DNA of 64,000 nucleotides. Origin: Polyangia bacterium. GTDB taxonomy: Bacteria; Myxococcota_A; Polyangia; Fen-1088. Under the pieces are notes generated by a model. The model was given only the letters and a program-made list of their open reading frames with translations. It made no database searches and was not told the DNA's origin. Within the stretch, counting starts at the first letter, position 1; the number at the start of each line of letters is the position of its first letter. Positions 35,234-62,216 of this stretch are shown here, piece after piece. The translations under genes were made by a program, and so were the position numbers. The DNA lies in contig JBJMQQ010000013.1 in assembly GCA_045802645.1 (NCBI GenBank), forward strand, positions 1,588-65,587, in the 5' to 3' direction.

Positions 35234-35625
35234 TGTCGGACTCCGTTTCGCGGCGCGATGCCGATTGCGACCCGGCCGTCGCGCACACGGACCGGGTAGA
35301 CGGGGAGCTTCACCAAGGGGTCGTCGAAGCAGGCGCCCGTCTCCAGGTCGAACGTCTGCTTGTAGATGGGGGAGGCGATCTTGGGGCGGCCGCCGCGGTC
35401 GCCCACGATGCCGCGGGCGATCACGAAGGCCTGACTGAACGGGTCGTAGTTCGACAGCGCGTAAACGCGGTCGCCCTCGTCGGGGCGAACCAGCGCGATC
35501 TGGCGGTCGCCGACCAGCGCAGCGACCCCGCTGGCGGGCGGGATGTCGTCCAGCGCGCAGGTGTCGATCCAGATGACGTCGGGCTCGGGCGCGGCCAGCG
35601 CTTCGACGTGGATGGCGACGCTCAT
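35230..35625 (-). CDS. nirD: Nitrite reductase [NAD(P)H] small subunit (Rieske-like)
   Basis: 131-aa C-terminal part of the shadow ORF 35230..37347 (MSVAIHVEALAAPEPDVIWIDTCALDDIPP...). Flanked by ATGA overlaps with nirB and narK. Confidence 0.85.
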   Translation of the reverse strand: MSVAIHVEALAAPEPDVIWIDTCALDDIPPASGVAALVGDRQIALVRPDEGDRVYALSNYDPFSQAFVIARGIVGDRGGRPKIASPIYKQTFDLETGACFDDPLVKLPVYPVRVRDGRVAIGIAPRNGVRQ

Positions 35626-38180: not shown

Positions 38181-38216
38181 CGAGATTCACGGTAGGGGAG
38201 TCCACGTTTCTCGATG
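38176..38216 (-). promoter_or_regulatory. 9-bp perfect inverted repeat enclosing nirB start codon (CCATCGAGA-N23-TCTCGATGG)
   Basis: Read from the sequence. The 3' arm on the mRNA contains ATG 38178-38180. Confidence 0.35.
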
Positions 38217-38332
38217 GTCAAGACACGGTCAAAGGTCGTTAATTCTGCCGCCGCAGCGTCGGCTGCGTTGTTTACGGCTGTTGGCCGAATCTTGACGCCG
38301 ACGAAACGTGCGCCAGCGGATGCTGATCATCG

Positions 38333-41877: not shown

Positions 41878-41937
41878 AGCCGCCGCCGCGGGGAGGATGA
41901 AACGCCAGGACGCCGGGACGCCAGGGACCGGAGCCGT

Positions 41938-42945
41938 TCAGAACACCAGCGGCACGTCGACCTGCACCATGTTGTACGACGAGTTGCTGAGCGGCGCGTC
42001 CAGGGCGCGGGCGTAGGAGATCCCGGGGCGCAGGAACATTCCACGGCCGACCGCGAAGTGCGCGCGCGGGCCGATGGCGACGGTGGTGGTGTCCTTGTTG
42101 GCGGAGGGGATGTCGCTCTTCGTGCCCATCACCACCCGCGTCGGCGTGCTCAGCCACCGCTGGTAGCGGAGCTCGGCGCCGACCGACAGAAACGGCAGCA
42201 GGAAGTACCCGGCGTGCAGACCCATCGTCGAGTTCGTGCGCGCCGCGTCGCTGCTCTGGCCGCCGGCGTCGTCTCCGTGCACGCGCAGGAGCTGGAACAG
42301 GGTCGCTTCGGCCTGCACGGTCAAGCGGTGGTCGACGTACGCCACGTCGGCGCCCACGATCCCGGTGAAGTAGTTGACCGCGAACATCGCGTTGTCCATG
42401 CCCGATCGGGCCTGAAGGCCCGCCGTGTTGGCCGCCGCGACGCCTGCATCCGGGTGGTCGCCGCTGCCTGCGCCGATGGGGATCGTGCCGCCCGCGAACG
42501 CCGCCCAGCGGACGCTCCCGGCGCGCCGCGCGTAGGTCAGGCCCACGATCGGGTTGATGAACGACGAGCCGTCCGGCGCCGCGCCCGGTGCCTGGTTCTG
42601 AACGAATCCCAGACGCAGGAGCGGCGCCAGGTGCGACGTCACCGCGTAGCTGCCCAGCAGCATCGTGGCCACCGTGGACCCACTGGCGCCGGCCGTGTCG
42701 TAGAACGCGACCGAGCTGTCCGACCGCACGACGCTGGCCGCCGCCGCCGGTCGGAGCTGCCAGGGGATCGAATAGGGTGGCGGCGGCGTGGGGGCCGTGG
42801 CGCTGGGCGGCGCGACGGCGACGGCCGTCGCTTCGGGCGCAACACTGTCTGCGCCGCGTGCGACGCCGCCCAGAACGCCGGCCGCACAGGCCGCCGCCAA
42901 GGCCGTGGAATTTCGGAACCAGCGGTGAAATTTCAGTTCGGTCAT
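41938..42945 (-). CDS. Outer-membrane beta-barrel protein (C-terminal Phe), function unknown
   Basis: Signal peptide. Alternating amphipathic beta-strand pattern. Terminal ...VQVDVPLVF. Confidence 0.55.
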   Translation of the reverse strand: MTELKFHRWFRNSTALAAACAAGVLGGVARGADSVAPEATAVAVAPPSATAPTPPPPYSIPWQLRPAAAASVVRSDSSVAFYDTAGASGSTVATMLLGSYAVTSHLAPLLRLGFVQNQAPGAAPDGSSFINPIVGLTYARRAGSVRWAAFAGGTIPIGAGSGDHPDAGVAAANTAGLQARSGMDNAMFAVNYFTGIVGADVAYVDHRLTVQAEATLFQLLRVHGDDAGGQSSDAARTNSTMGLHAGYFLLPFLSVGAELRYQRWLSTPTRVVMGTKSDIPSANKDTTTVAIGPRAHFAVGRGMFLRPGISYARALDAPLSNSSYNMVQVDVPLVF

Positions 42946-43079
42946 GTGTCCCTCCGAACGCGACGGTAGGAGGGGCACCGTTTCTCAGCGGTCAATTGTC
43001 AGTCAGAGATCGATGACGAGTCAGCCAATGCCCTCGTTGACAGATCGGGTCGGCGGCTCCTGGTTTCCTGACTGCAGCC

Positions 43080-43095
43080 TGGTGCCAGGTTTGCA
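43080..43095 (+). promoter_or_regulatory. Sigma-54 promoter-like element TGGTGCCAGGTTTGCA (GG-N10-GC spacing exact)
   Basis: -24 GG at 43081-82 and -12 TTGCA at 43091-95. The predicted transcription start site at ~43106 lies just upstream of ATG 43110 of the PAP2 gene. Confidence 0.45.
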
Positions 43096-43109
43096 ATTGC
43101 GCGGAGACC

Positions 43110-44153
43110 ATGACGCCACCAACGCTGCCCGCCGTATCCGGGCCTGCCCCCTCGTACCCGGCCGTCGTCAGACCGACAGCGGGTGTCGCGCTTCCGACAC
43201 GCGTCCTGGCGTTCCTGGGCCCGGACTTCGGCCTGACCCTGGCGTTCCTGACGGCGCTGGCCACGCTGGTGGCCGCCTTCGGCACCTCGTTCGTCTGGGG
43301 GAAGGGCCCGATCCTCTGGGCTGGTGGAATCTTGACGGCGCTGGTGGTGATTGCGCTGCTCTCCCGGTTGCCGGCCATCCTCGGCGGCCAACCCGGCGCC
43401 TGGCGCGAGGTCGGCGCTGCCGCCCGCGTCGCGGCGCGCGACTGGGGGCCGTTCACCATCATCATGTGGGCGTTCGAGAGCATGGAGACGTACACGGGGG
43501 CGATCCGGAAGACGGGGATCGACGACGCGCTCTACCGCCTGGACCTGAGACTCTTCGGCATCGAGCCGACCGTCTGGGCCGGCGGCTTCCATCACCCCCT
43601 GCTCACCGACTGGATGTCGCTGTGTTATGGGCTCTACTTCGTGCTGCCGATGGCCGTGGCCGCCGCCCTGTCGCTACGCGGCCGGCGGCGCGACCTGCGC
43701 GAGCTCTCGACCGCCGTCATCCTTCAGATGGGGCTCGGTTTCCTGCTGTTCCTGCTGTTCCCCGCCGGACCGCCCCGCTTTTACCCGCCGCTGCTCGCCG
43801 GCGTGTTCCAGCCGGTCCACCTTCGGTCCTGGACCGGCCTTTATGAAATGCAGCAGACCGTCTTCGACGCGGTCGATCCGCTGCGGGTGCGCTCGGCCTT
43901 CCCGTCGCTGCACTGCTCGATCGGCTTGCTGACCCTGTTCTATTCCTGGCGCTTCGGGGACGCGCTGTTCCCGCGGCACCGCCGCCTGTATTTCTGGATC
44001 TGCTTACCGCTGGTCGTCAGCCTGTGGCTCTCGACCGTCTACCTGCGCCACCACTGGATCCCCGACATTGCCGCCGGGCTGCTGCTGGGGCTGGTCTCGG
44101 CGACGCTGGCGCCTCGCCTGCGCCGCGCCTGGCCGGTGCTCCCCTCTGCCTGA
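43110..44153 (+). CDS. PAP2-superfamily integral membrane protein (lipid phosphatase or inositol-phosphotransferase-like)
   Basis: Multi-TM protein. PAP2 C2/C3-like motifs SAFPSLHCS and YLRHHWIPD. Confidence 0.8.
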   Translation: MTPPTLPAVSGPAPSYPAVVRPTAGVALPTRVLAFLGPDFGLTLAFLTALATLVAAFGTSFVWGKGPILWAGGILTALVVIALLSRLPAILGGQPGAWREVGAAARVAARDWGPFTIIMWAFESMETYTGAIRKTGIDDALYRLDLRLFGIEPTVWAGGFHHPLLTDWMSLCYGLYFVLPMAVAAALSLRGRRRDLRELSTAVILQMGLGFLLFLLFPAGPPRFYPPLLAGVFQPVHLRSWTGLYEMQQTVFDAVDPLRVRSAFPSLHCSIGLLTLFYSWRFGDALFPRHRRLYFWICLPLVVSLWLSTVYLRHHWIPDIAAGLLLGLVSATLAPRLRRAWPVLPSA

Positions 44154-46556
44154 CGACAGCGCCGGCGCGACCAGCAGGGCGGCGGCGAGGCAGGTGATCT
44201 CACCGAGCATCGCCGCGACGCCGAAGCTGCGGATCCCGCGGTTCGCCGAGAACCACAGCGACCCGTACCCGACGACCGTCGTGTAGGAGCAGAGCGCCAC
44301 GGCGGATGCCGTGTGGACGCCCTCGCTCCGCGCACCGCGCACGGCGGCGTCGGCGCGCGCGCGGCTGATGATGTTCACCGCGTAGTCGACGCCGATCCCG
44401 ATCGTGATCGGCAGGGCCACGAAATCCAGGAAGTTCACCTTCAGGTGGAGCACCGAGGCGATCAGCAGCAGGGCCAGGGTGCCCAGCGCGCAGCAGAACA
44501 GCGTGGACATCGCCGCCGCCGTCGGTCCCAGCAGCAGCAGCACCACGATGACGGCCCCGACCGCCGCCACCGCCGTCGCGCGCGGGCCGTCGCGCTCCAT
44601 CGCGTCCAGCATGTCGCTGAACACGAAGGCGGTGCCGCCGATGAGGACGTCGCCCGGCAGCCCCAGGCCGCGGACGGCGTGGGCGAACCGGCGCAGGTCG
44701 TTCGTGTTCCAGGAATTGATGCCGAGGCCGTTGTTGGCCAGCACGATCCGCCCGCGGCTGCCGTCGCGCTCGACGTACGGCCAGGCCAGGTCCGCCGGGA
44801 CGTCCGCGTCACCCAGCGCGCGCAAGCCCTCGGGCGGGCGCGCGTCTTCCAGCTGTTTCCGCTCGTCCGCGGTCAGCGCGTCTGGGTGGCGGAGCTGGCG
44901 GTCGACCAGGTGTCGGATCTCGGACAGCACCTGGAGCTTCTCGTCCTGGTCGGCGGGCAGGCGGTCGTCGATCGAGCTGATGCGGCTGAAGAGGCGCGCC
45001 CGCTCCGGCTTGCCCGCGTCCGTCGCGCGTAGCCGGGCGACCAGCGGCTCGACCTCGGCGCGGCGCGCGACCGCCAGCGCGAACCCGCCGGAGATCCCGT
45101 GGCCGAACGCGTGGTCGAACTTGTCCATCCAGGCGCCCGAGCGGTCCATCTCGGCGCTGGTGCTCGCCAGGTTCTGCAGGTTTGTCTCCAGCGGGTCATG
45201 CGCCAGGTAGCGCCAGGCGCCTGCCGCGCAGACCACGAAAAGGACGGCCGCCACCGGGACGATGACCCGGCGGTTGCGCGGCAGCAGCCGCTCGAAGCGC
45301 GCCACGGCGGCCGGCGCCGGCCGGACCTTCACCCAGCCGCGGCGTTCGAGCAGGGCCAGGGCCGCCGGCAGCACGGTGTAGGCGGAGATCCAGCAGCACA
45401 GCATTCCGACGCCACCGATGATCCCGAAGTCGCGAAACCCGCGAAACGGGGTGACGGCCAGGGACAGGTATGCCGTGCCGGCCGTGGCCGCCGCGGCGGC
45501 GGTGGGACGAAGCGTGCCGGCGACCGCCAGCGCGCGCGCCGCGACCGGGCTGTGTCCGGCCCGCCGCTCTTCCAGGTACCGGCCAAGCAGGATGATTCCG
45601 AAGTTGATGCCGTTGCCGACGACGATCGACGACAGGAACGCGCTGGCGATGTTGAGATGGCCGATCGTGAGGTCCGTGACGGCAAAGGCGACCAGCGCGC
45701 CCACGGTCAGTGACCAGCCGAGCGCCAGGACCGCCGCGCCCGAGCGGAAGTAGAGCAGCATGCCGACCAGCACCGCCACGACCGTCAGCAGCGTCGCGAT
45801 GGCCATGCCGCGGACCAGGCCGTTCTGCTCGGCCAGCGCCCGGACGACGTCACCAGCGACGCCGAACCGGACCGACGGCCCCGATTCGTGCGCGGTCGCG
45901 TCGACGGCGCCGCCCAGCGCCGCCGCCAGCCGGCCGCCGCGGTCCAGATCGCCGCCGTTGAAGTCGGCCCGCACGATGATCAGCTGCAACCGGCCGTCGG
46001 CCGAGACCAGCGGCTGGGGGTGACCCGCCTTGGCGCGCGCCTCGTCGAGGCGCCGCCGGAGCGCGTCCAGCGAATCGCCGTTGGCACGGTCGTCGCTGCC
46101 CTTGGCCGGTTCGTCCAGCGGCACGTAGAGCGGGTTCTCTTTCATCGCCCGCTCGTGCAGGGCGTCTCGCGCCGCCGTCAGGTCATCCAGCGACGCGAAC
46201 AGGAACCGGTTGTCCCAGGTGTACTGGCGCAGGACGCCGTCGTCCGCGGTGATGCCGGCTATCCCCAGCGCTCGCGCGTCCAGCGCCCGGATTCGCCGCA
46301 ACAGCGCCTCCCCGGCCCGGTTGCGCGCGGCGGGGTCGGCGCTCTCGACGCCAATCATGAAGGTGGCCGCCACGCGCGCCCGCTTCTCGATCGCGCGTAG
46401 CTGCTGGACGGAGGGCGTCGACTCCGGCAGCAGGTACGACAGATCGCTCTTGATCGGCAGCCGGCTGGTGAGGGCGGCCGCCACGATCGCCACCAGCGCC
46501 GCCGCGACCAGAACGGCTCGATCGCGCCCGGCCTGGCTCATGGATGAAGATTTCAT
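44004..46556 (-). CDS. MMPL-family RND-type membrane transporter (putative lipid exporter)
   Basis: Two 6-TM bundles with periplasmic loops typical of MMPL/HpnN-like transporters. Start ATGA-coupled to the upstream GT4. The low-complexity C-terminal tail overlaps the PAP2 gene antisense. Confidence 0.85.
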   Translation of the reverse strand: MKSSSMSQAGRDRAVLVAAALVAIVAAALTSRLPIKSDLSYLLPESTPSVQQLRAIEKRARVAATFMIGVESADPAARNRAGEALLRRIRALDARALGIAGITADDGVLRQYTWDNRFLFASLDDLTAARDALHERAMKENPLYVPLDEPAKGSDDRANGDSLDALRRRLDEARAKAGHPQPLVSADGRLQLIIVRADFNGGDLDRGGRLAAALGGAVDATAHESGPSVRFGVAGDVVRALAEQNGLVRGMAIATLLTVVAVLVGMLLYFRSGAAVLALGWSLTVGALVAFAVTDLTIGHLNIASAFLSSIVVGNGINFGIILLGRYLEERRAGHSPVAARALAVAGTLRPTAAAAATAGTAYLSLAVTPFRGFRDFGIIGGVGMLCCWISAYTVLPAALALLERRGWVKVRPAPAAVARFERLLPRNRRVIVPVAAVLFVVCAAGAWRYLAHDPLETNLQNLASTSAEMDRSGAWMDKFDHAFGHGISGGFALAVARRAEVEPLVARLRATDAGKPERARLFSRISSIDDRLPADQDEKLQVLSEIRHLVDRQLRHPDALTADERKQLEDARPPEGLRALGDADVPADLAWPYVERDGSRGRIVLANNGLGINSWNTNDLRRFAHAVRGLGLPGDVLIGGTAFVFSDMLDAMERDGPRATAVAAVGAVIVVLLLLGPTAAAMSTLFCCALGTLALLLIASVLHLKVNFLDFVALPITIGIGVDYAVNIISRARADAAVRGARSEGVHTASAVALCSYTTVVGYGSLWFSANRGIRSFGVAAMLGEITCLAAALLVAPALSSGRGEHRPGAAQARRQRRRDQPQQQPGGNVGDPVVAQVDGREPQADDQR

Positions 46557-47752
46557 GCGTGCTGGCGGAGCGGCGCTTCACCCAGCGGAGTCGTCGCCGG
46601 TGCCCCCAGCCGAACGTAAAGGTCCAGGACCTGCTGCGCGACGGCGGGCCAGTCGAACTGCGCGGCGGTGGCACGCCCCGCAGCGGCGCACCGACGCCGC
46701 AGTGTGGCGTCCTGCAGCAGGCGAGTCGTTTGCGCGGCCAGCGTCGCGCAGTCCGGGTCCGCCGCGACGTCCACCATGAACCCCTGCTGGCCGTCCCGCA
46801 TGACGGTCCGAAAACCCGGCGTGTCCGCCGCCACGATCGCGCAGCCGGCCGCCATCGCCTCCAGCAAGATGATCCCGAAGGTGCCGCCGAGGGCCGGACA
46901 CAAGAGGACGTCCGCCGACGCGTAGTACGACGGCCGCTCGGGCCCCGGCACGAACCCCACGAAGTGCGCGTCCGCGCGGAGATCCGCCGGGATGAGGCTC
47001 TCGTACGCCGGGCGCAGCGGGCCGTCGCCGACCAGGACCAGGCGCGCGTCAGTCCCGCCCCGTCGTACGCGCACCCAGGCCCGAATGACGCGGTCGACGC
47101 CGTTCCGCGGATCGAAGCGCCCGACGTGCAGGACGTTCAGGCGGCCGTCGTCCAGCTCGGGTCGGCGGCGGCCCGCCGCGAACTCCGCGACGTCCACGCC
47201 GTTCGGGATGACATGCCAGGGCGCCCGGAAGGTGCGTTTGAGGTCGACCAGCGCCGTCTCCGAAACACCAATCGCCGCGTCCAGCCGGTCGGCGTAGCGC
47301 TGCAGCGACCCGCGCAGCGCCCCATAAAGGATGCTGCGACCGACGACGCTGTGAAACGTCCCGACCGTCAGCGCGGACGACTGCCGCAAGAACAGCAGCG
47401 GCAGCGTGGGCATCAGCGGCGAGTGCAGGTGGACCACGTCGAACTGCTCGCTGCGCAGGAGCTTGGCGACCTGCGCCGACAGCCCTGGCCCAGACGATAC
47501 CCGCGCGACCGACCCGCCCGAGAACACCGGGATCGAGCGCCCCAGCCGGATCACCCCGTTCTCCCGATCGAGGCGCGCCGCGGCGGCTTCGGTCGCCGCG
47601 CCGTCCAGGGAGGCCAGCGTGTCGCTCACGACCGGCGTGATGATGCGGACGTCGTGACCCAGCAGCCGGGCAGCCCGCACGAAGTGGTGCACGTGCTCCT
47701 GAATGCCGCCCAGGGTGGGGTAGTAGTACTCAGTGACGATCCCGATCTTCAT
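46553..47752 (-). CDS. GT4 glycosyltransferase, PimA-like
   Basis: MKIGIVTEYYYPTLGGIQEHVHHF (PimA-like N-terminus), FDVVHLHSP, C-terminal EAMAAGCAIVAADTPGF. Confidence 0.85.
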   Translation of the reverse strand: MKIGIVTEYYYPTLGGIQEHVHHFVRAARLLGHDVRIITPVVSDTLASLDGAATEAAAARLDRENGVIRLGRSIPVFSGGSVARVSSGPGLSAQVAKLLRSEQFDVVHLHSPLMPTLPLLFLRQSSALTVGTFHSVVGRSILYGALRGSLQRYADRLDAAIGVSETALVDLKRTFRAPWHVIPNGVDVAEFAAGRRRPELDDGRLNVLHVGRFDPRNGVDRVIRAWVRVRRGGTDARLVLVGDGPLRPAYESLIPADLRADAHFVGFVPGPERPSYYASADVLLCPALGGTFGIILLEAMAAGCAIVAADTPGFRTVMRDGQQGFMVDVAADPDCATLAAQTTRLLQDATLRRRCAAAGRATAAQFDWPAVAQQVLDLYVRLGAPATTPLGEAPLRQHA

Positions 47753-47923
47753 GTTTGGCGTGTACCTCGATAGACACTGGAACGTAGGTGCGAACCGCAT
47801 GCCGTCGAGGCCAGCCCATGGATGACCGGCCATTTGGTGTCCGCACCTGTCGGACTTTCGGCAGGGTGACGAACTTCCGGCAGGGCCGTGACGACTCGGG
47901 GGTAAGTCGCGGTCTGCGGCTTT

Positions 47924-47935
47924 GGGCAATTGCCC
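47924..47935. promoter_or_regulatory. Perfect 12-bp palindrome GGGCAATTGCCC plus downstream GGCAATT half-site repeat
   Basis: It lies in the 442-nt divergent intergenic region between the GT4 and CDP-alcohol phosphatidyltransferase genes. GGCAATT recurs at 47945-47951. Confidence 0.4.
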
Positions 47936-47991
47936 GCTGCTTGCGGCAATTCCTGACTTGCCCGGCGTGAGGCGCTCCTCAGATTGCTGGA

Positions 47992-48007
47992 TGGCCTCGG
48001 CGTTGCA
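47992..48007 (+). promoter_or_regulatory. Sigma-54 promoter-like element TGGCCTCGGCGTTGCA
   Basis: -24 TGGC at 47992-95 and -12 TTGCA at 48003-07 with exact spacing. Oriented toward the small ORF and the CDP-alcohol phosphatidyltransferase gene. Confidence 0.45.
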
Positions 48008-48033
48008 CTTGGATGGCTGGCAGGCGGGCAGGC

Positions 48034-48198
48034 ATGAACAACGACGGCCACAAAAACTTCTTCCAGCAGGTGCGCATGATCGTAGGTATCGGGCGTGTCA
48101 ACGCGCGCGCTTACGCAGCGGTGCTCGGCACCATCTTGCGCGAGCGCCTGTGGCGGGTTCCCGTGCGCGGCACCCGCGCGGCAGGGAGCACCCGATGA
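48034..48198 (+). CDS. Possible small upstream ORF (54 aa) translationally coupled (ATGA) to the CDP-alcohol phosphatidyltransferase gene
   Basis: ATG 48034, high GC3 consistent with the host. Its stop overlaps ATG 48195. No homology assessable. Confidence 0.3.
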   Translation: MNNDGHKNFFQQVRMIVGIGRVNARAYAAVLGTILRERLWRVPVRGTRAAGSTR

Positions 48199-48995
48199 CT
48201 CCCGCGGCGGGCGCGGCGCGCGATCTGCCGTTCCTCATCACGATGTTCGCGCTGTTCGCGGTGCCGTTCCTGGTGCACGCGGTTCGGGTGTGGCGCGGCA
48301 CCGTGCGGTTGCCGGCGGCCGGCCCGGCGGGCGCCGGCGGACGGCTCTTCGGGCCGCTGTTCATCAGCTACTACTACTGGATGATGCGGCCCGTCATCCG
48401 CGGCCTGGCCCGCACGCGGGTGACGCCCAACCAGGTGACGATGCTGACGCTGGTCATCGCGGCCGGCGCGGCCGTCGCGATCGCGACCGGGCACTTCGCG
48501 TGGGGTTCCGCGCTGGTGATCGGCGGCGGCACGCTGGACATCGTCGACGGGCACCTCGCGCGCACGAAGAACATGGCGACGGCGGAGGGGGCCTTCCTCG
48601 ATTCGACGATCGACCGCATCTGTGACGGGCTCATCTTCGGCGGTTGCGTGGTCTATTACGCGGGCACGCCGTTCATGTACGTGGCGCTGGCCGTCCTGGT
48701 CCTGTCGTTCACCGTCAGCTACGCCCGCACCCGCGGCGAGCTGTTCGGTGTCACGGGCACACAAGGGCTGATGCAGCGGGCGGACCGGATCGCGGTGCTG
48801 GGCATCTCGATGGCGCTGTCGTCGTTCTTCGCGCATCGCGCCGAAGGGCTGGTGCCGCACCCGATCTACGCGGTGACCGCGGGCGGGCTGTGCCTGATGG
48901 CGGTGTTGAACGCCGTCACGGCGTGCCGCCGGATCGTCTGGACCGTCCAGCAACTCCGGCGCCGCGGCGCCGCCCCGGTGCGGGCCCGGGGATGA
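48195..48995 (+). CDS. CDP-alcohol phosphatidyltransferase family protein (phosphatidylinositol-phosphate synthase-like)
   Basis: Signature DG-x2-AR-x8-G-x3-D-x3-D present as DIVDGHLARTKNMATAEGAFLDSTIDRICD. Six predicted TM helices. Confidence 0.88.
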   Translation: MTPAAGAARDLPFLITMFALFAVPFLVHAVRVWRGTVRLPAAGPAGAGGRLFGPLFISYYYWMMRPVIRGLARTRVTPNQVTMLTLVIAAGAAVAIATGHFAWGSALVIGGGTLDIVDGHLARTKNMATAEGAFLDSTIDRICDGLIFGGCVVYYAGTPFMYVALAVLVLSFTVSYARTRGELFGVTGTQGLMQRADRIAVLGISMALSSFFAHRAEGLVPHPIYAVTAGGLCLMAVLNAVTACRRIVWTVQQLRRRGAAPVRARG

Positions 48996-50092
48996 GGGCG
49001 ACGACCCGGCGCGCCGCCTCGCTGGCGGCGCGCATTGCCGTGGTCGTGGGGGCGCTCTGGTTCGTCCTGCGGGGTGTCAACGGCGCCGTCGTCGGCGCGA
49101 CCCTGCGCCACGCGCGCCCGTGGCCGCTGGTCGCCGTGGTGGCGCTGAACGCGCTGGTGATGGGCGTGCGAGCCGTGCGCCTGCGCCTGCTGCTGGGCGG
49201 GGCGGCCGGGCTGCTGGCGTGCTGGCTGGCGAAGCTGACGGCCTCGGCCATGAACAACGTCATTCCGCTGCGCGGCGGCGACATGGCTCGCCTCTGGATG
49301 CTGCAGCGGCACGCGCACATCTCGAAGACCGGGGCCGCCGCCATCGCCGTCGTCGAGGGGCTGTTCGACATGGCGACGCTGGGCGCGCTGGCGCTGGTTG
49401 CCGCCGCCGGGCTGCGGACGCAGCACTGGGCCGTGGGGGTGGCGGTGGTGGTCGGCCCGGGCGCGGCCGTGCTGATCGGGCTTTCGCGCCGGCTGGCCCG
49501 GCGGCCCCGCACCAGCGCCCAGCAGACCGGCCGCTGGCGGCGGGCGTTCGTCCGGGTGGCGGCGCGCATCGAGCCGGGCGTCCGCGCGTTGCGGCAGCCC
49601 GGCGTCATTCCCCGGGTCGCGGCGACGTCCCTGCTGTCGTGGGCGGTGGAGCTCTGCATGGTCGTCGTGTGCGCCCGCGCGGTCCACCTGCCGATCGGCC
49701 CGCGCCTGGCGGCCGTCGTCTTGCTGGCGATCAACGTCGCGATGGCGGTGCCGTCGTCACCGGCGGGCGCGGGCGCCTTCGAGGGCGCCGTCGTCGTGGT
49801 GCTGACCCTGGCGGGCATCGGGAAGTCGCCGGCGCTCGCCTTCGCGCTGCTCTATCACCTGGCTCAGGTCGTGCCGGTGACCATCGCCGGGACGCTGGTC
49901 GTCTGGCGTGCCGGCCTCACGCTGGACCGGCTGCCCGCCGATCCAGGCGATCGCGTTGACGGAGCTGGGCTTTGCCTAGCGGAGTCGTCGCGGGAGGTCC
50001 AAGGAACCCTCCCAGGGTTCCTGCCTGATCGAGATCAGCCGGTGACCAGCGCCATGGCCAGGCCGTCCCAGCCCTTGAGGCCGACGGTTTGA
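48992..50092 (+). CDS. UPF0104 / lysyl-phosphatidylglycerol-synthase-TM-like (flippase-like) membrane protein
   Basis: ATGA-coupled to the upstream gene. 8 predicted TM helices with an MprF-N-terminal-like pattern. The tail overlaps the convergent O-methyltransferase gene. Confidence 0.7.
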   Translation: MRATTRRAASLAARIAVVVGALWFVLRGVNGAVVGATLRHARPWPLVAVVALNALVMGVRAVRLRLLLGGAAGLLACWLAKLTASAMNNVIPLRGGDMARLWMLQRHAHISKTGAAAIAVVEGLFDMATLGALALVAAAGLRTQHWAVGVAVVVGPGAAVLIGLSRRLARRPRTSAQQTGRWRRAFVRVAARIEPGVRALRQPGVIPRVAATSLLSWAVELCMVVVCARAVHLPIGPRLAAVVLLAINVAMAVPSSPAGAGAFEGAVVVVLTLAGIGKSPALAFALLYHLAQVVPVTIAGTLVVWRAGLTLDRLPADPGDRVDGAGLCLAESSREVQGTLPGFLPDRDQPVTSAMARPSQPLRPTV

Positions 50093-50703
50093 ATCGCCGT
50101 CGCGTCGACGCGGGGCTCGTCGTGGAGGCGGTCGAACAGCTTGCGCGTGCCGACGATGGCGGGATCGCTGCTGCGCCCGTCCGTGATCGCGCCGTGGCGG
50201 ACGACGTTGTCGATCAGGATCAGGCTGCCGGGGCGCGACAGGGCCAGCGCCGCGTCGAAGTAGGCGGCGTTGTTCTGCTTGTCCGCGTCGATGAACGTCA
50301 GGTCGAACGGGGGCTGCTTCTCGGCGGCCAGCCGGGCCAGCGTGTCCAGCGCGGGCCCGATGCGGATCTCGACCCTGTCGCGGAGTCCGGCGCGGGCGAG
50401 ATTCTTCTCAGCGACCTGCGCGTGCTTCGGGTCGACCTCCAGCGTCACCAGGCGGCCGTCGGGCGGCAGCGCACGGCCCAGCCAGATGGCGCTGTACCCA
50501 CCCAGGGTCCCGACCTCCAGAATCCGGCGCGCCCCGCGCACACGCGCCAGGAGGTTCAGCAGCTTGCCCTGATTGGGGGCGACCGCGATGGCCGGCAGCC
50601 CGGCCGCCGCGCTGTCGGCCAGGGCCGCCTGCAGCGCCGGATCGCGCTCGACCAGCCGTTCGTTCAGGTACTCGTCGACGGAATTCCAGGCGTGTTCGCT
50701 CAT
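50035..50703 (-). CDS. Class I SAM-dependent O-methyltransferase (caffeoyl-CoA OMT family)
   Basis: WNSVDEYL start typical of the family. SAM motif ILEVGTLGGYSAIW. Likely true start is ATG 50703. Confidence 0.85.
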   Translation of the reverse strand: MSEHAWNSVDEYLNERLVERDPALQAALADSAAAGLPAIAVAPNQGKLLNLLARVRGARRILEVGTLGGYSAIWLGRALPPDGRLVTLEVDPKHAQVAEKNLARAGLRDRVEIRIGPALDTLARLAAEKQPPFDLTFIDADKQNNAAYFDAALALSRPGSLILIDNVVRHGAITDGRSSDPAIVGTRKLFDRLHDEPRVDATAIQTVGLKGWDGLAMALVTG

Positions 50704-50795
50704 GGTCGGGGCGAAATATACCGCCGCGTCAAGGACCTGCCGGAAGAACCTCCCCAACTTCGCAAGTAAAATTCCCTCCGCCGACGCGATTGTGA

Positions 50796-50811
50796 CCAAG
50801 TCATGACTTGG
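50796..50811. promoter_or_regulatory. Perfect 16-bp palindrome CCAAGTCATGACTTGG upstream of desaturase gene
   Basis: 30 nt upstream of ATG 50841 in a 137-nt divergent intergenic region. Flanked by GTGAC...GTCAC and two GGCCTG repeats. Confidence 0.5.
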
Positions 50812-50840
50812 CCTGACACGAGGCCTGTCACCTTGGAAAC

Positions 50841-51773
50841 ATGCATGTCGTCCCTGCGCCCGCTGCGACGGTCACGTCGCCCGCGCCCGCAACCGAAACC
50901 GCAGCCTCCCCATCCCGATTCGCCAAGCTTGCCGGCTACGTGCGCGTCACGTCCCTGGCTTTTTGGGGCGTCCACGTGGCCGCCGTCGTCGGCATCATCG
51001 TCGGCGGATGGTCCTGGTCGGGCGTCGCGCTGGCCCTGGGCACCTACTACGTCCGTATGATCGTGGTGACCGCCGGGTACCACCGCTACTTCGCCCATCG
51101 CGCCTTCAAGACCTCGCGCTGGTTCCAGTTCGTGCTGGCCGTCGCCGCACAGACCGCCGCCCAGAAGGGCGTGCTCTGGTGGTCGAGCCACCACCGCTGG
51201 CACCACAAGTATTCGGACACGCCGAAGGACATCCACTCGGCGAAGCTGCGCGGGTTTTGGTACTCGCACATCGGGTGGGTCATGGCGCCCAACTGGGAAG
51301 AGACCGACCAGAGCCTGGTCGGCGACCTGGCGAAGTTCCCGGAGCTCCGGCTCCTCGACCGCGCGGGCTGGAACATTCTTCCGACCGTGCTGCTGGCCCT
51401 CGGCCTCTTGATCTTCGGCGGCGGCCACCTGCTGGTCTGGGGATATTTCGTCCCGACGGTTCTGCTGTGGCACGGGTCGTTCTCGATCAACTCGCTGGCG
51501 CACCTCATCGGCCGGCGCCGCTACGCCACGTCGGATGACTCACGCAACAGCTTCATGCTGGCGCTGCTGACGACCGGCGAAGGCTGGCACAACAATCACC
51601 ACCACTATCAGAGCTCGGCCAACCAGGGCTTCCGGTGGTGGGAGGTCGACGTGACCTTCTATGTCCTGCGCCTGCTCTCGATGACGGGCCTCATCTGGGA
51701 CCTGCGCCGCCCGCCGGCGCACGTGATGGCCGCCGACGGCTCAGCCGACGACGGCGCCCGCGCCGCGGCGTAA
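50841..51773 (+). CDS. Acyl-CoA (delta-9-type) fatty-acid desaturase, membrane-bound
   Basis: Three His boxes HRYFAH, HRWHH, HNNHHHY. Confidence 0.9.
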   Translation: MHVVPAPAATVTSPAPATETAASPSRFAKLAGYVRVTSLAFWGVHVAAVVGIIVGGWSWSGVALALGTYYVRMIVVTAGYHRYFAHRAFKTSRWFQFVLAVAAQTAAQKGVLWWSSHHRWHHKYSDTPKDIHSAKLRGFWYSHIGWVMAPNWEETDQSLVGDLAKFPELRLLDRAGWNILPTVLLALGLLIFGGGHLLVWGYFVPTVLLWHGSFSINSLAHLIGRRRYATSDDSRNSFMLALLTTGEGWHNNHHHYQSSANQGFRWWEVDVTFYVLRLLSMTGLIWDLRRPPAHVMAADGSADDGARAAA

Positions 51774-51801
51774 CGGCCCGGACTTCTGGCAAAATAGGGG
51801 C

Positions 51802-52731
51802 GTGAAGGTCCACGCCCCGACCAGCGTCGTCCTGTACCGCGCCCGACTCATCTTCGTCCTCACGGCCCTCATCCCGACCGTGCTCATCACCGTGCTGGGC
51901 GTGCTGTTCGTCGCGACGGGTGGATCCCATTCCATGGCGGTGGTGGGAGGGATCCTGATGCTCGCGTTTTGCGCGACCGCCCTGGCCGGCTGGGCGCTGG
52001 GGACGATCTTCGTGACCCGGGGCGCCAGCCTGGCGGCGCTGCAGAACGAGTTCCTCTCGTCGGTCTCGCACGAGCTGCGCACGCCGCTGACGTCGATCCG
52101 GCTGTTCATCGACACCCTCAGCGAGGGGCGGGTCGCCGACCCCGTCGCCGAGCAGCGTTGCTTTTCGATCATCAACCAGGAGCTGGTGCGGCTGGACGGC
52201 CTGGTCGGCCGCCTCATCGAGCTGTCGAAGATCGAATCGCGACGGGACGTGTTCGAACGGCGCCCCGTGACGGTGTCCGACATCGTCGAGGACGCGCTGG
52301 CGACGTTGAAGACAGTGGACCTCTCGGACGACGTCGAGGTCGACGTGAAGGTCGACCGCAGCTTGGTGGTGCGCGGCGATCGGGCTGCGCTGGTGCAAGC
52401 GGTCGGCAACCTGCTGAGCAATGCCTGGAAGTACACCCGCCCCGGCAACCGGCGCATCCAGGTGATCGCCACCGCTGACGTCAAGCACGTCTACATCTCC
52501 GTGACGGACAACGGGTTCGGCATCTCCGCCGAGGAGCAGCGGGTCATCTTCGACAAGTTCCAGCGGGGCGCCGCCGCCATCGAGCAGCGGAGCCCCGGGT
52601 CCGGGTTGGGACTGGCGATCGTGCGCGCGATCGTGACCGCCCACGCCGGCCGCATCGACGTCAATTCGCAGATCGACCGCGGGGCGACCTTCCGCATCAC
52701 CCTGCCGCGCGGCGTTCCGGAACCGGCGTGA
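51802..52731 (+). CDS. Sensor histidine kinase (HisKA + HATPase_c) with two TM helices and no periplasmic domain (intramembrane-sensing type)
   Basis: GTG start. TM1/TM2 separated by ~5 residues. H-box SHELRTPLTSI. N/G boxes. Confidence 0.88.
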   Translation: MKVHAPTSVVLYRARLIFVLTALIPTVLITVLGVLFVATGGSHSMAVVGGILMLAFCATALAGWALGTIFVTRGASLAALQNEFLSSVSHELRTPLTSIRLFIDTLSEGRVADPVAEQRCFSIINQELVRLDGLVGRLIELSKIESRRDVFERRPVTVSDIVEDALATLKTVDLSDDVEVDVKVDRSLVVRGDRAALVQAVGNLLSNAWKYTRPGNRRIQVIATADVKHVYISVTDNGFGISAEEQRVIFDKFQRGAAAIEQRSPGSGLGLAIVRAIVTAHAGRIDVNSQIDRGATFRITLPRGVPEPA

Positions 52732-53456
52732 GCGAGCCAGGGACACCCCGTCTGGTCGTCATCGTCGAAGACGACGGGGCGATCGCGGAAGGGCTGGCGC
52801 TGAATCTCAAGTTGCAGGGCTATCGCACGGAGATCGTCGGAGACGCCGAGACCGCCGTCGAGGTGATCGCGGCGACGCGACCGGCCCTAGTGCTGCTCGA
52901 CATCTCGCTCCCCAAGCGCAGCGGTCTGTGGGTCCTGGAAACGCTGCGCGGCGAGGGCGATTCGGTGCCGATCATCGTGCTCTCGGCGCGGCAGGACGAA
53001 TTCGACAAGGTGGCGGCGCTGCGCCTGGGGGCCGACGACTACGTGACCAAGCCGTTCGCGCTGGCCGAGCTGCTGGCGCGCGTCGCCGCCGTGCTTCGCC
53101 GCGCGCCGCCGGACCGTGAAGCCGCCCCCGCGCCGGCGCCACCGTCGTCATCCCGGTTCGGCGACGTCGTCGTCGATCTCTCGGCGCGAACCGTGACCAA
53201 GGCCGGCAAGCCCGTGAAGTTGACGCACCTCGAATTCGAGCTGCTGGCCTTTTTCTGCTGCAACGACGAGCGGGTCTTCTCGCGCGAAGAGCTGCTGCGT
53301 GAAGTGTGGGGCCTTCGCCAGGCGACCCCGGCGCGCACCGTCGACAACTTCGTCGCCCAGCTCCGCGCCAAGCTGGAAGACGACCCCGACCGTCCGACCT
53401 ACCTGCTCACCGTCCGCGGCTCCGGCTACCGCTTCGCCCGCGGCGCGCGCGTCTAG
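52728..53456 (+). CDS. OmpR/PhoB-family response regulator
   Basis: Receiver LVVIVEDD...LDISLP...GADDYVTKPF. Winged-helix LTHLEFELLAFF...TVRGSGYRF. ATGA-type overlap with the kinase gene. Confidence 0.9.
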   Translation: MSEPGTPRLVVIVEDDGAIAEGLALNLKLQGYRTEIVGDAETAVEVIAATRPALVLLDISLPKRSGLWVLETLRGEGDSVPIIVLSARQDEFDKVAALRLGADDYVTKPFALAELLARVAAVLRRAPPDREAAPAPAPPSSSRFGDVVVDLSARTVTKAGKPVKLTHLEFELLAFFCCNDERVFSREELLREVWGLRQATPARTVDNFVAQLRAKLEDDPDRPTYLLTVRGSGYRFARGARV

Positions 53457-53695
53457 CTTCGCTGCCGTTCGGCTTCGGCGTGGGGCGGTCGGTCTGTGGG
53501 GTTCCCTCCCGTGCTCAAACAGGTCCTCGCGGGTCGACCCCGGATCTGCTCGGCTCGCGCCGTAGACCGCTGCGGAACTGCGCGCGGAGGGGACACTCAC
53601 TCCGACGTCTCCTCAACCAAAGCGAGCGGAACCCCAAGAACGCCCGCACTGACAGTCACGAAGGCGCCTGCGGCGTCCTGGCGCTTCATTCAGGC

Positions 53696-54322
53696 TCAGA
53701 GGTTGTTGACGATCGGCTGGCCGATGCCGACGAAGGACGGGCGGGCCTCGCAGCGGGTCGCGTGCGCGGTCAGGCGCGGGTAGCGGGCTTCGTCGAAGAG
53801 GGTCGGGTGCGCCTCGCGCACGAACCGCAGCATGCAGGCGACGGCGATGTCGGCGTGCGAGAGGGTTCCGCCCAGCCACCAGCCCGTCGCGCGGCGCGCG
53901 CGGTCGTCCTCGAGGGCGTGCAGCCCCTTTTCAATCTGCAGCCGGCAGCGGGCCATCCAGCGCTCGGACGGGTGGTCGTGCTGCAGCGTTTCGTAAAGAA
54001 GGCTGACGGCCTTGTCGGCGGTACCGGTGGCCAGCGCGACGACGCGCAGCCCGTCGCGGCGAGGCGCGCCAGCGCGCGGCAAGAGGGCGCGTTCGGGCCC
54101 GGCCATCTCGTCGACGGCGTCCAGGATTGCGCCGCTTTCGATGAGCGCGCTCCCGTCATCCAGCAGCAGGGTGGGGACCCGGCCAAGCGGGTTGTACGCG
54201 GCGATCTTTTCGGCGTCGCCCCACACCGACCAGGGGCGGTGCTCGAACGGCATGCCAAGCTCGCTCAGCGCAATGCCCACCCGCCTCACAAACGGCGAAT
54301 CGTATTGACCAATCAGAATCAT
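53696..54322 (-). CDS. Glutathione S-transferase
   Basis: GST N-terminal fold (MILIGQYDSPFVRRVGIAL, VPTLLLDDGSALIESGAIL) and C-terminal helical domain. Confidence 0.85.
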   Translation of the reverse strand: MILIGQYDSPFVRRVGIALSELGMPFEHRPWSVWGDAEKIAAYNPLGRVPTLLLDDGSALIESGAILDAVDEMAGPERALLPRAGAPRRDGLRVVALATGTADKAVSLLYETLQHDHPSERWMARCRLQIEKGLHALEDDRARRATGWWLGGTLSHADIAVACMLRFVREAHPTLFDEARYPRLTAHATRCEARPSFVGIGQPIVNNL

Positions 54323-54385
54323 TTCGTCACCTGATTCTCAAGGTATCAGGTTGCGGTTGACCTTCGAACGCGTAAGTACTCTTCC

Positions 54386-56746
54386 ATGCCCGACGCCACG
54401 CTGACGGATGACGAGCTCGAGGCCACGGACGCCTACTGGCGCGCCGCGAACTACCTGACCGTCGGGCAGATCTATTTGAAGGACAACCCGCTCTTGCGCG
54501 AGCCGCTGCGCGCCGAGCACGTCAAGCCACGCCTCCTTGGTCACTGGGGCACGTCGCCGGGGTTGAACCTGGTGTACGTCCACATGAACCGGGCCATCCG
54601 CACCCGCGGGCTGAACGCGATCTTCCTGGCCGGCCCCGGTCACGGCGGCCCGGCGGTGCTGGCCAACGTTTACCTCGAGGGGACGTATTCGGAGACTTAC
54701 CCGGCGATCACGACGGACGTCGCGGGGCTGCGCGCGCTGTTCCGGCAGTTCTCGACCCCGGGCGGTGTCCCCAGCCACGTCAGCCCGCCCACCCCCGGGT
54801 CGATTCACGAAGGCGGCGAGCTGGGCTATGTGCTGAGCCACGCGTTCGGCGCGGTGTTCGACAACCCGGATCTCGTCGCCGTGGCGGTGGTCGGCGACGG
54901 TGAGGCGGAGACCGGGCCGCTGGAAGGGTCCTGGAAGGGAATCAGCTTCCTCGATCCGCGCCGTGACGGCGCGGTGCTGCCGATCCTGCACCTCAACGGC
55001 TACAAGATCTCGGGGCCGACGGTGCTCGGACGCTCGACGGACGAAGAGGTCGCCGCGTTGCTGCGCGGGCACGGCTACGACCCGCGGTTCGTGGCCGGGG
55101 ACGATCCGCCCGTCGTGCACCGCGCGTTCGCGGCGGCGCTGGCCGGCGCGCTGGACACGATCGCCGACATTCAGAAGACCAGCCGGACGTCCGGGGTGGG
55201 CGTCCGGCCGCAGTGGCCGGTCCTGGTCTTGCGCACGCCCAAGGGGTGGACGGGGCCGAAGACCGTCGACGGCGTGCCCGTCGAAGGCACGTTCCGCGCG
55301 CACCAGGTGCCGCTGGCGGAGGTCCGCAGCAACCCGGCGCACCTGGCGATGCTCGAGTCCTGGATGCGCAGCTACCACCCCGAGGCGCTGTTCGACGACC
55401 AGGGGCGTTTGATCGAGCGGCTGCGCGCGCTGGCGCCGTCCGCGGATCGGCGCATGAGCGCCAACCCTCACGCGAACGGCGGCCCCCTGTCGCGCCCGCT
55501 GGACCGGCCGGACTACGCGGCCCACGCGATCCGCGTCGAACGTCCGGGCGCCGAGCGGCACGAATCGACCCGCCAGCTGGGGCTGTGGCTGCGCGACATC
55601 TACGCGCGCAACCCCGACAACTTCCGGCTGTTCTGTCCGGACGAGACCAACTCGAACCGCCTGGGCGCGGTGTTCGATCAGCAGAGCCGCTGCCTGGTCG
55701 AGCGACTGGAGCCCGGCGACGACCACGTCGCCACCGACGGGCGCGTGATGGAGGTGCTGAGCGAGCACAACTGCGAAGGCTGGCTGGAAGGTTACGTTCT
55801 CACCGGCCGCCACGGGATCTTCGCGACGTACGAGGCGTTCGCCTTGATCGTCGCGTCGATGGCGACCCAGCACGCGAAGTGGCTGGAGGCCTGCCTGGAT
55901 TTGCCGTGGCGCGCCCCGGTGCCGTCGCTGAACATCCTGCTGACGTCGACGTGCTGGCGGAACGACCACAACGGCTTTTCGCATCAGGGGCCGGGCTTCA
56001 TGGACACGATCCTGTCCAAGAAGGGCGCCATCTCGCGCATCTACCTGCCGCCCGACGCGAACTGCCTGCTGTCGATGGCCGACCACGCGCTGGCCAGCCG
56101 AAACTACGTCAACCTGCTGATCATCGACAAGCAGCCCGAGCTGCAGTGGCTGAACCTGGAGGCCGCGCGCGAGCACTGCGCGCGCGGCGCCTCGATCTGG
56201 GAGTGGGCCGGGACCGCGGGCGGTGACGCGCCGGACGTCGTGCTGGCGTGCGCCGGTGACGTCCCAACGCTGGAGACGATGGCTGCCGCCGCCTGGCTGC
56301 GGCAGCGCGCGCCCGGCCTGAAGACCCGCGTCGTCAACGTCGTCGATCTCATGGGTCTCTATTCGCCGGACGAGCACCCGCACGGGATGACCGACGACCG
56401 CTTTGCCGGCCTGTTCACGCACGACACCGACGTCGTGTTCGCGTTCCACGGATACGCGGGCGCGGTGCACCAGGTCTTGCACGGCCGCCCCAACCCCACC
56501 CGCTTTCACGTGCGCGGCTACCGTGAAGAGGGGACCACCACGACCCCGTTCGACATGGTGGTCCTGAACGGGATGAGCCGCTTTCACCTAGCGGCGGAGG
56601 CGCTGAAGCGCGCCCGCCGCCCGCCCGCTGACGCCGACCTGCTGATCGACGAATGCACGGCGATCCTGAAACGGCACCGCGCCTACGTTCGCGAGCACCT
56701 GGAGGACCTGCCCGAGATCCGGGACTGGACCTGGCCGGCCGCGTGA
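54386..56746 (+). CDS. xfp: Phosphoketolase (xylulose-5-P/fructose-6-P phosphoketolase)
   Basis: [30 protein letters not shown]-binding regions. Full-length 786 aa. Confidence 0.92.
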
Positions 56747-62084: not shown

Positions 62085-62170
62085 GGCGCGCAGATTATGC
62101 GCGAGCGTGCGGGCCGGCGCAGGAATTGCGGCGGCCTGGAAAAACAGCCGCGCTGGACAGGACTTCCCGG

Positions 62171-62186: not shown

Positions 62187-62216
62187 ATCCCGACCATCCA
62201 AGGAGCTGTGCGCACC

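Follow-up and report, generated by a model that had tools for sequence, protein, structure and literature searches.

Inositol phospholipids, together with the glycosides derived from them, are characteristic of eukaryotes, Actinobacteria and some Bacteroidetes. In the actinobacterial operon for phosphatidylinositol (PI) and its mannosides (PIMs), which has the form pgsA1–acyltransferase–pimA and corresponds to Rv2612c–Rv2610c in Mycobacterium tuberculosis, a phosphatidylinositol phosphate (PIP) synthase stands beside a PimA-type glycosyltransferase of family 4 (GT4). A second system is the experimentally verified inositol cluster BT_1521–BT_1526 of Bacteroides thetaiotaomicron (Heaver et al. 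2022, PMC9246714), in which BT_1521 is annotated as a lysyl-phosphatidylglycerol (lysyl-PG) synthase, BT_1522 is an AUR1-like PI-dihydroceramide synthase and BT_1523 is the PIP synthase (PIPS). BT_1525, a member of the PgpA family, is the only bacterial PIP phosphatase to have been identified (PMC9246714); that of mycobacteria was described as 'yet-unidentified' in 2019 (PMC6506517), and the mycobacterial flippase for acylated PIMs as 'currently uncharacterized' in 2025 (PMC12041525). Here we analyse a gene cluster from an uncultured member of the Polyangia, contained in a stretch of 64,000 nucleotides that is referred to below as the window (GenBank assembly GCA_045802645.1, contig JBJMQQ010000013.1, positions 1,588 to 65,587 of the forward strand).

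The cluster brings together a PIPS-like transferase, a PimA-like GT4, a PF03706 membrane protein, an MMPL transporter and a small open reading frame (ORF) in a grouping that is conserved among its relatives, and we think it moderately probable that it builds an inositol-phospholipid-based lipid or glycolipid at the inner membrane, flips it and exports it to the cell surface. A preliminary description of the same DNA had proposed an island for the synthesis and export of an inositol-type lipid with sigma-54 promoters. Synthesis and export of such a lipid, sigma-54 control and synteny are retained here, whereas the role given to the PAP2 protein, the inclusion of the methyltransferase, the desaturase and the two-component genes and the choice of mannose as donor sugar are not. 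Its remark that no myxobacterial cluster of this composition had been described agrees with our literature searches, which found none; searches for PIMs, PimA, PI synthase or inositol phosphorylceramide (IPC) synthase in myxobacteria gave nothing relevant beyond the paper of Heaver et al. (PMC9246714).

Conserved core of the locus

Coding frames were chosen by third-position GC and their products scanned against Pfam and NCBIfam, which bore out all six of the membrane-lipid domain calls first made in 43080-53456. The genes on which the argument rests are as follows.

46553-47752, minus strand: GT4 glycosyltransferase (PF13692, PF00534, PF13439)
44004-46556, minus strand: MMPL protein (PF03176, 125 bits)
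48034-48198, plus strand: small ORF of 54 amino acids (aa), ATGA-coupled to the transferase and unlisted in the preliminary description
48195-48995, plus strand: CDP-alcohol phosphatidyltransferase (CDP-OH_P_transf, PF01066, 50.9 bits), 266 aa from the ATG at 48195
48992-50092, plus strand: LPG_synthase_TM protein (PF03706, 160.8 bits)
43110-44153, plus strand: PAP2_3 protein (PF14378, 81 bits against a gathering score of 27; PF01569, 47 bits)

The ATGA coupling of the flippase-like gene to the transferase, already pointed out in the preliminary description, is confirmed as an overlap of the transferase stop and PF03706 start at 48992-48995, and a second ATGA overlap joins the GT4 and MMPL genes at 46553-46556.

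Conservation was assessed from gene tables for several loci (L001, L003, L004, L085 and L086 among them) and from a tblastn matrix, the homologues of the transferase having been sought in one genome per species. These homologues come nearly all from metagenome-assembled genomes (MAGs) of uncultured Polyangia or 'Myxococcales'; they comprise 16 myxobacterial loci at 49-94% transferase identity, after which identity drops sharply to 33-41%, mostly in Acidimicrobiia. Five genes, encoding the PimA-like GT4, the HpnN-like MMPL protein, an ORF of 50-70 aa, the PIP-synthase-like transferase and the PF03706 protein, make up a core that co-occurs in nearly all of some 20 uncultured Polyangia loci, at transferase identities of 50-60% and with flanks that differ. 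This grouping is a conserved unit, beyond chance. The preliminary description had let its proposal hang on conserved synteny across Myxococcota, and these loci provide it.

In the more distant loci the genes form one co-directional operon, in the order GT4, a membrane protein of about 515 aa resembling PMT_2 glycosyltransferases of the GT-C type, MMPL, small ORF, transferase and PF03706. The PMT_2-like GT-C gene directly follows the GT4 gene in 12 Polyangia loci (seen among L008-L020 and L085-L087, for example at 3907-5448 in L086 and 5281-6858 in L085) and is absent from the clade of the window. The PAP2_3 gene adjoins the core only in L005 among the Polyangia relatives searched by tblastn, and is missing from most of the clusters.

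In L014, L018 and L020 the first gene of the operon is a classical PAP2 gene (PF01569). GC content is 68-77% in the window and flat, at 0.68-0.73, across the cluster region, and an island of recent horizontal transfer is rejected on this ground.

Predicted functions of the encoded proteins

The transferase carries the CDP-alcohol signature reported in the preliminary description, resolved here as D115-x2-D118-G119-x2-A122-R123-x8-G132-x3-D136-x3-D140 and invariant in 22 relatives. Among NCBIfam models it matches archaetidylinositol-phosphate synthase (AIPS; NF040950) with 125.1 bits and PIPSynth (NF045883) with 120.1 bits, compared with 22 bits for pgsA and 19 for pssA. The best solved relatives of its family profile are M. 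tuberculosis PgsA1 (6h5a, E 5e-27) and other PIP synthases, a PgsA structure reaching only E 0.007, and direct alignment with MtPgsA1 gives 36% identity over 177 aa. Both approaches agree in placing it in the PIP-synthase clade and not with PgsA or PssA, as had been proposed. Functional data are available on the residues of the inositol-phosphate pocket of MtPgsA1/MtPIPS (PMC4634129, PMC6506517), mutagenesis having added R94, Y133, R137 and P153 to that pocket (PMC6506517). The positions of Mt R94, Y133, R137, R155 and R195 are occupied by R141, Y176, R180, R198 and R246, again invariant in the 22 relatives. By clade and pocket the transferase therefore looks like a PIP synthase, a putative member of the family that is predicted to turn CDP-diacylglycerol and inositol 1-phosphate into PIP.

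In 17 of the 20 loci examined the transferase has directly before it an ORF of 45-100 aa that bears the motif ARAYAAxLxxxxxERLWRxP; this ORF often overlaps the transferase start and belongs to no Pfam family. It is called as a gene of 50-67 aa in L001 (9822-10004), L085 (9801-10004), L086 (9834-10004) and L004, and a search of 1.84 billion proteins gave eight representative clusters, of 55-81 aa, that match it.

The best solved relative of the GT4 protein is PimA of Mycobacterium smegmatis (2gej/4n9w, E 5e-47), matched over the full length (residues 1-382) and some 30 orders of magnitude ahead of the next solved GT4s, BshA (E 4e-16) and PimB' (1e-14). Together with its synteny with PIPS in Polyangia, this sustains the earlier naming of the protein as PimA-like, and JGI pipelines annotate members of the clade as 'phosphatidylinositol alpha-mannosyltransferase'. 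PIPS with a PimA-type GT4 is the classical pairing, as in the nearest actinobacterial PIPS loci; in the actinobacterial loci retrieved with the transferase query the PimA-type GT4 lies 2-5 kb downstream of PIPS. Across the Polyangia loci GT4 identity is 66-90%, higher than that of the transferase, and the clade is therefore under strong constraint.

The residues reported as critical in PimA (PMC9202250) were checked across 55 GT4 sequences. The Polyangia clade keeps Y9, G15, G16, Q18, R68, H118, R196, R201 and E282. On the acceptor side Y62 is replaced by Ser or Ala, and N63 by Gly in most members and by Ala or Arg in a few. Every member of the clade has E274 deleted (GG-TFG in place of GGESFG) and Asn for K202, and the guanine-binding D252/D253 are not kept, whereas actinobacterial GT4s neighbouring PIPS retain E274 and K202. 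As the clade lacks the donor-binding E274, K202 and D253 of PimA, the mannosylated product originally put forward is not supported. We read the enzyme as PimA-like in its acceptor half and remodelled at the donor site, and predict that its donor differs from that of PimA. It also matches NF053787, a GT4 family that glycosylates phosphatidylglycerol (PG), weakly (49.6 bits).

The PF03706 protein covers positions 2-302 of the 302 in the Pfam model and passes the cut-off of TIGR00374 (58.3 bits against 43.2). Its gene follows the transferase in 15 of 19 Polyangia loci by tblastn, is called directly downstream in L001, L003, L085 and L086, and is also found beside a PIPS-like gene in L062. Against the N-terminal half of MprF the match is weak (22 bits), and the single-sequence AlphaFold model, with a mean per-residue confidence (pLDDT) of 48.8, is unusable for fold comparison. 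A role as flippase is plausible by analogy with the flippase domain of MprF. Tight coupling to the transferase makes it more so, as does the occurrence in most relatives of a GT-C enzyme, a type that works at the outer face of the membrane, as PimE and ArnT do.

The part of the preliminary description that made the MMPL protein an MmpL exporter survives as far as the MMPL domain is concerned. Orthology to mycobacterial MmpL is rejected, as the protein is HpnN-like both by NCBIfam (TIGR03480 HpnN, 230 bits against a cut-off of 752) and by its best solved relative (HpnN 5khn, E 7e-24). It is orthologous to MMPL genes that are paired with PAP2_3 in L088 (72% identity), L089 (48%) and L090 (47%). 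The convergent PAP2_3 and MMPL frames overlap by 150 nucleotides (nt) in the window (44004-44153), by 42 nt in L005 and by 4 nt in L088; the C-terminus of the MMPL protein may be extended or its stop misplaced.

For the PAP2_3 protein, a family profile of 24 relatives finds yeast AUR1 as the best solved match (9vj3, E 7.6e-8) with the catalytic motifs aligned, PgpB following at 0.013; a search of solved structures with the single sequence gave a weak match to PgpB (E 0.45). In its AlphaFold model (pLDDT 80.8) the only Foldseek matches at E <= 1e-3 are Aur1 9ivc and 9vj4 (3e-4 and 5e-4), phosphatases reaching 0.12 or worse. The conserved motifs are FPAGPPRF, FPSLHC and STVYLRHHWIPD, the latter two (C2, PSLH, and C3, S-x6-H-x3-D) aligning to FPSLH and STMYLTHHYFVD of AUR1. 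The model for the Bacteroides PI-dihydroceramide synthase, NF052609, is matched with 36.5 bits (E 3.5e-9) against a cut-off of 480. From profile, motifs and predicted fold it is an AUR1/IPC-synthase-like enzyme, and it probably transfers a phospho-head group to a second lipid. In L062, a deltaproteobacterial MAG, PAP2_3, PF03706 and PIPS-like genes follow one another in an operon, and in L088, L089 and L090 the PAP2_3 homologue adjoins the MMPL orthologue, MMPL identity tracking PAP2_3 identity.

The preliminary description had presented a CDP-alcohol transferase with a PAP2 protein as the established two-step route to PI, which is mistaken, the identified bacterial PIP phosphatase BT_1525 being of the PgpA family (PMC9246714). 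As a candidate PIP phosphatase the PAP2_3 protein is rejected: it is AUR1-like, lacks the Lys found in motif C1 of phosphatases, has Thr in the place of the Arg of C3 and is not retained together with PIPS.

Sigma-54-like elements and neighbouring genes

The string TGG-N8-TTGCW occurs five times in the window against 1.71 expected, a count reached in 3 of 100 shuffles. Four elements concern the cluster.

47992-48007, plus strand: predicted sigma-54 -24/-12 promoter, TGGCCTCGGCGTTGCA, 27 nt before the ATG of the small ORF
47789-47804, minus strand: sigma-54-like element directed into GT4-MMPL, CGGCATGCGGTTCGCA, about 37 nt before the GT4 ATG, absent from the preliminary description
47848-47863, no strand assigned: candidate enhancer (upstream activating sequence), TGTCGGACTTTCGGCA, an imperfect palindrome of the TGT-N10-ACA type between the divergent promoters
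43080-43095, plus strand: doubtful sigma-54-like string, TGGTGCCAGGTTTGCA, before PAP2_3

The strings at 43080 and 47992 that were first taken as sigma-54 promoters both exist, and of the two the one at 47992 is conserved while that at 43080 is doubtful. At the place equivalent to 47992, where 0.024 strict TGG-N8-TTGC strings would be expected per locus, 12 of the 20 loci have one, and GG-N10-GC with TTGCA is found in all 20. The element appears to be the sigma-54 promoter of the operon formed by the small ORF, the transferase and PF03706, a prediction from its position and conservation. Equivalents of the minus-strand element at 47789-47804 are found in all six divergent loci, counting the window (L001, with TGGCAAAAGTCTTGCT, L003, L005, L008 and L009). 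The element at 43080 ends 15 nt before the PAP2_3 ATG, which would leave the GGAG ribosome-binding match upstream of the predicted start site; it is kept only in the near-identical L005 and is absent upstream of PAP2_3 in L062, L088, L089 and L090.

L001, L005, L006, L008 (TGTCGAAGGTTCGACA), L009, L013 and L016 have 16-mers related to TGTCGGACTTTCGGCA at a distance of 70-163 nt upstream of the -24 element, and we infer that the palindrome at 47848-47863 may be an enhancer. With predicted sigma-54 promoters and a shared enhancer-like palindrome on both divergent operons, expression should depend on an enhancer-binding protein. A gene for an NtrC-type sigma-54 activator is present in the window at 62097-63599, and its product is one candidate for this role. 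A scan of 41800-54400 for sigma-70 sites returned none, and terminator-like sites were not enriched.

Two further motifs, TTCCTGAC (at 43065, 43245 and 47950) and GCAATTGC (at 43093, 47926 and 59066), each occur three times in the window against about 0.8 expected. Both are common to the upstream regions of PAP2_3 and the small ORF, which may reflect co-regulation or chance.

The remaining genes in and beside the interval first described are the following.

50035-50799, minus strand: O-methyltransferase (Methyltransf_3, 140 bits)
50841-51773, plus strand: fatty-acid desaturase (FA_desaturase, Pfam)
51802-52731, plus strand: histidine kinase (HisKA/HATPase_c, Pfam)
52728-53456, plus strand: OmpR-type response regulator (Pfam)
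41938-42978, minus strand: possible beta-barrel protein of 346 aa, matching neither Pfam nor NCBIfam

The O-methyltransferase, once counted as a lipid-modifying component, is confined to the nearest clade, where it travels with a block of glutathione S-transferase (GST) and FUSC genes, and we reject it as a component and class it as a neighbour. The desaturase and two-component genes, present only in L005 and L006 besides the window, are likewise treated as neighbours. The desaturase is of the delta-9 type, with His boxes HRYFAH, HHRWHH and HNNHHH, and the kinase that follows it has two N-terminal transmembrane helices with almost no external loop. The whole unit (50841-53456) resembles a system for controlling membrane fluidity, an analogue of Des/DesK/DesR assembled from other families; assignment to the DesK/DesR families themselves is rejected, as the kinase is of the HisKA type and the regulator of the OmpR type. 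The 346-aa protein has a signal-peptide-like N-terminus and ends in ...VPLVF, with the final Phe seen in outer-membrane beta-barrels. Its homologue in L003 (7414-8418; 80% identical) adjoins the GT4 gene, and it is possibly an accessory outer-membrane beta-barrel with a weak link to the cluster.

The flanking genes are unrelated, comprising nitrate assimilation upstream and, downstream, GST, phosphoketolase/acetate kinase, a FUSC protein, a P-type ATPase and the NtrC-type activator. The nitrate/nitrite assimilation block that borders the cluster (32723-41877) encodes a NIT-domain protein, an MFS transporter, NirB, a molybdopterin nitrate reductase and a flavoprotein, and is syntenic with the cluster in L001 and L003. 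By comparison with L001, L003 and L005, the phosphoketolase (XFP) and acetate kinase pair (54386-57873) is an insertion that separates GST from FUSC. Two cobalamin riboswitches were found elsewhere in the window, at 18156-18366 (plus strand, 113.7 bits) before the B12-independent methionine synthase MetE (18436-20868), and at 24277-24510 (minus strand, 86.2 bits) before the large subunit of ribonucleotide reductase (21845-24277, minus strand); the Rfam scan gave no match inside the cluster region.

Proposed pathway and comparison with known systems

In the pathway that we favour, the PIPS-like transferase would, on the strength of homology and a conserved substrate pocket, condense CDP-diacylglycerol and inositol phosphate to phosphatidylinositol phosphate, and a phosphatase encoded outside the cluster would convert PIP to PI. 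The PimA-like GT4, with its PimA-like acceptor side and remodelled donor site, would then glycosylate the inositol head group at the cytoplasmic face. By analogy with the flippase domain of MprF the PF03706 protein would flip the lipid, a step supported by the periplasm-type GT-C enzyme that follows the GT4 in most relatives, and the HpnN-like MMPL/RND (resistance-nodulation-division) protein may, as HpnN does, pass it on towards the outer membrane. In this lineage the AUR1-like PAP2_3 protein, always paired with the MMPL orthologue, probably hands the phospho-head group of a phospholipid on to another lipid, ceramide for example; if the enzyme works like AUR1 or BT_1522, its donor would be PI. 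Both divergent operons would be driven by sigma-54 from promoters with a common enhancer-like palindrome, and would need an enhancer-binding protein.

Several points weigh against this pathway. The transferase stays below the equivalog cut-offs of both of its best families (180 bits for NF040950 and 170 for NF045883), and the position of Mt P153 is occupied by Ala196 (Ala in 20 of 22 relatives, Gly in two). Domain scans of the 64 kb window and of about ten annotated neighbourhoods found neither a synthase of myo-inositol phosphate (MIPS) nor a PgpA-type PIP phosphatase. The deletion of E274, the Asn at K202 and the loss of D252/D253 set the GT4 clade apart from PimA; for the PF03706 protein, whose flippase role is argued by analogy, neither the single sequence nor a profile matched any solved structure. 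PAP2_3-MMPL pairs occur without a nearby PIPS gene in L088 and L090, so that the donor of PAP2_3 need not be PI. All relatives of the cluster are uncultured MAGs.

Some of these points suit an alternative in which the product is a glycosylated phospholipid other than an inositol lipid, the PIPS-like enzyme using glycerol-3-phosphate, a sugar phosphate or another phospho-alcohol, the GT4 decorating the product, and flipping and export proceeding alike. The sub-threshold scores against the PIPS and AIPS equivalogs and the lack of a MIPS gene in the window and annotated neighbourhoods speak for it. The Arg pair binds a phosphate that other phospho-alcohols carry too, the GT4 differs from PimA at the donor site and at Y62 and N63 on the acceptor side, and a PG-glycosylating GT4 family does exist in NCBIfam (NF053787). 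Against it, the PgsA and PssA models score about 20 bits and the PgsA structure trails the PIP synthases widely, the pocket equivalents of R94, Y133, R137, R155 and R195 are all conserved, the GT4 is far nearer to PimA than to any other solved GT4, and PIPS has AUR1-like and PF03706 partners, as it does in the verified Bacteroides cluster. We regard this alternative as unlikely.

A further possibility is a phosphoceramide, with inositol or another head group, as the main product, with PI as donor for the AUR1-like enzyme, the GT4 glycosylating the product in the manner of mannosyl inositol phosphorylceramide (MIPC) and the MMPL protein exporting it. A report of ceramide phosphoinositol from Myxococcus xanthus, as cited in PMC9246714, counts for the favoured pathway and fits this scheme too, as do the AUR1-like profile and fold of PAP2_3, its weak match to NF052609, its conserved pairing with MMPL and the operon GT4, PAP2_3, PF03706 in L089. 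Yet PAP2_3 is missing from most of the Polyangia loci that keep GT4, MMPL, PIPS and PF03706, the window showed no gene for serine palmitoyltransferase or for making ceramide, the NF052609 score is far below its cut-off, and the GT4 of L089 is a different one (27% identity), which together make a phosphoceramide as main product quite improbable. That unrelated genes for membrane proteins, sharing no pathway, have come to lie together by chance, as the restriction of the O-methyltransferase, desaturase, kinase and regulator to the nearest relatives and the unrelated flanks (nitrate assimilation, phosphoketolase) could suggest, is very hard to credit for a core that is syntenic, often translationally coupled and equipped with conserved promoters at 50-60% protein identity and among differing flanks.

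If the inositol-lipid pathway is correct, PI-glycolipid chemistry, known so far mainly from tuberculosis-type bacteria and gut Bacteroides, extends to the envelope of a Gram-negative predator lineage, the uncultured soil Polyangia. The cluster would also supply three candidates for transport and assembly steps that are unsolved or poorly understood in other systems: PF03706 as an inositol-lipid flippase, the counterpart of the PIM flippase still missing in mycobacteria, the HpnN-like MMPL protein as a lipid carrier from inner to outer membrane, and PAP2_3 as a bacterial AUR1-type head-group transferase outside Bacteroidetes. The GT4 clade, with an acceptor side like that of PimA and without the canonical Glu/Lys donor contacts, would be a variant supplied by nature in which donor specificity of retaining GT4 enzymes can be studied. 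Taken jointly, the ideas that PF03706 proteins are dedicated translocases of inositol phospho- and glycolipids, that the GT4 adds a sugar other than mannose from GDP-mannose, and that the result is a new PI-anchored outer-membrane glycolipid or lipoglycan with an HpnN-like carrier under sigma-54 control, are offered tentatively, as a possibility that we do not expect to hold in full. To our knowledge E. coli has no inositol lipids, and the claims made for the cluster are for this reason testable through heterologous expression.

Several described systems invite comparison. With MprF, which handles lysyl-PG, the PF03706 protein of the cluster shares the family over the full model length and the weak match of the N-terminal half, and it differs in lacking an aminoacyl-PG synthase domain, in its coupling to a PIPS-like gene and in having no sequence-level match to a solved structure. 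Hopanoid loci also carry a PF03706-type gene, hpnL. The MMPL protein has its best relative, among solved structures and in NCBIfam alike, in HpnN of Burkholderia (PDB 5khn), an RND-type shuttle that takes a lipid from inner to outer membrane, but it lies well under the HpnN cut-off and the window holds no genes for hopanoid synthesis. Yeast AUR1 (PDB 9ivc, 9vj3) is the best match of PAP2_3 by profile and by fold and has the motifs FPAxPP, FPSLH and STxYLxHHxxxD in common with it; identity is only about 20%, the TM-score is 0.47-0.59, and no Kei1-like partner was identified for PAP2_3.

The actinobacterial PI/PIM operon has in common with the Polyangia loci a PIP synthase of the same clade beside a PimA-type GT4, with the pocket conserved at the 36% identity given above, and the Acidimicrobiia loci found with the transferase query likewise have PIPS followed by a PimA-like gene. 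Unlike that operon, the Polyangia cluster belongs to a Gram-negative host, in the window its PIPS and GT4 genes are transcribed in divergent directions, no acyltransferase turned up in the conserved set, and the GT4 is without E274, K202 and D253. It adds the PF03706 protein, the HpnN-like RND transporter, the small ORF and the sigma-54 promoters; when 63 non-myxobacterial, mainly actinobacterial, loci were searched by tblastn for the PF03706 and MMPL proteins of the window, neither was found.

With BT_1521–BT_1526 of B. thetaiotaomicron (PMC9246714) the differences are that the Polyangia cluster has no MIPS, PgpA-type PIP phosphatase or GtrA protein, that its PAP2_3 scores far below the cut-off of the BT_1522 model, and that it has a PimA-like GT4 and an MMPL exporter instead. 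What the two share is the combination of a PIPS, an AUR1-like enzyme and a gene of the kind annotated as lysyl-PG synthase, BT_1521 being presumed a PF03706 protein from that annotation only; the same three kinds of gene as in BT_1521–BT_1523 stand side by side in L062 (PAP2_3, PF03706, PIPS) and lie within 6 kb of one another in the window.

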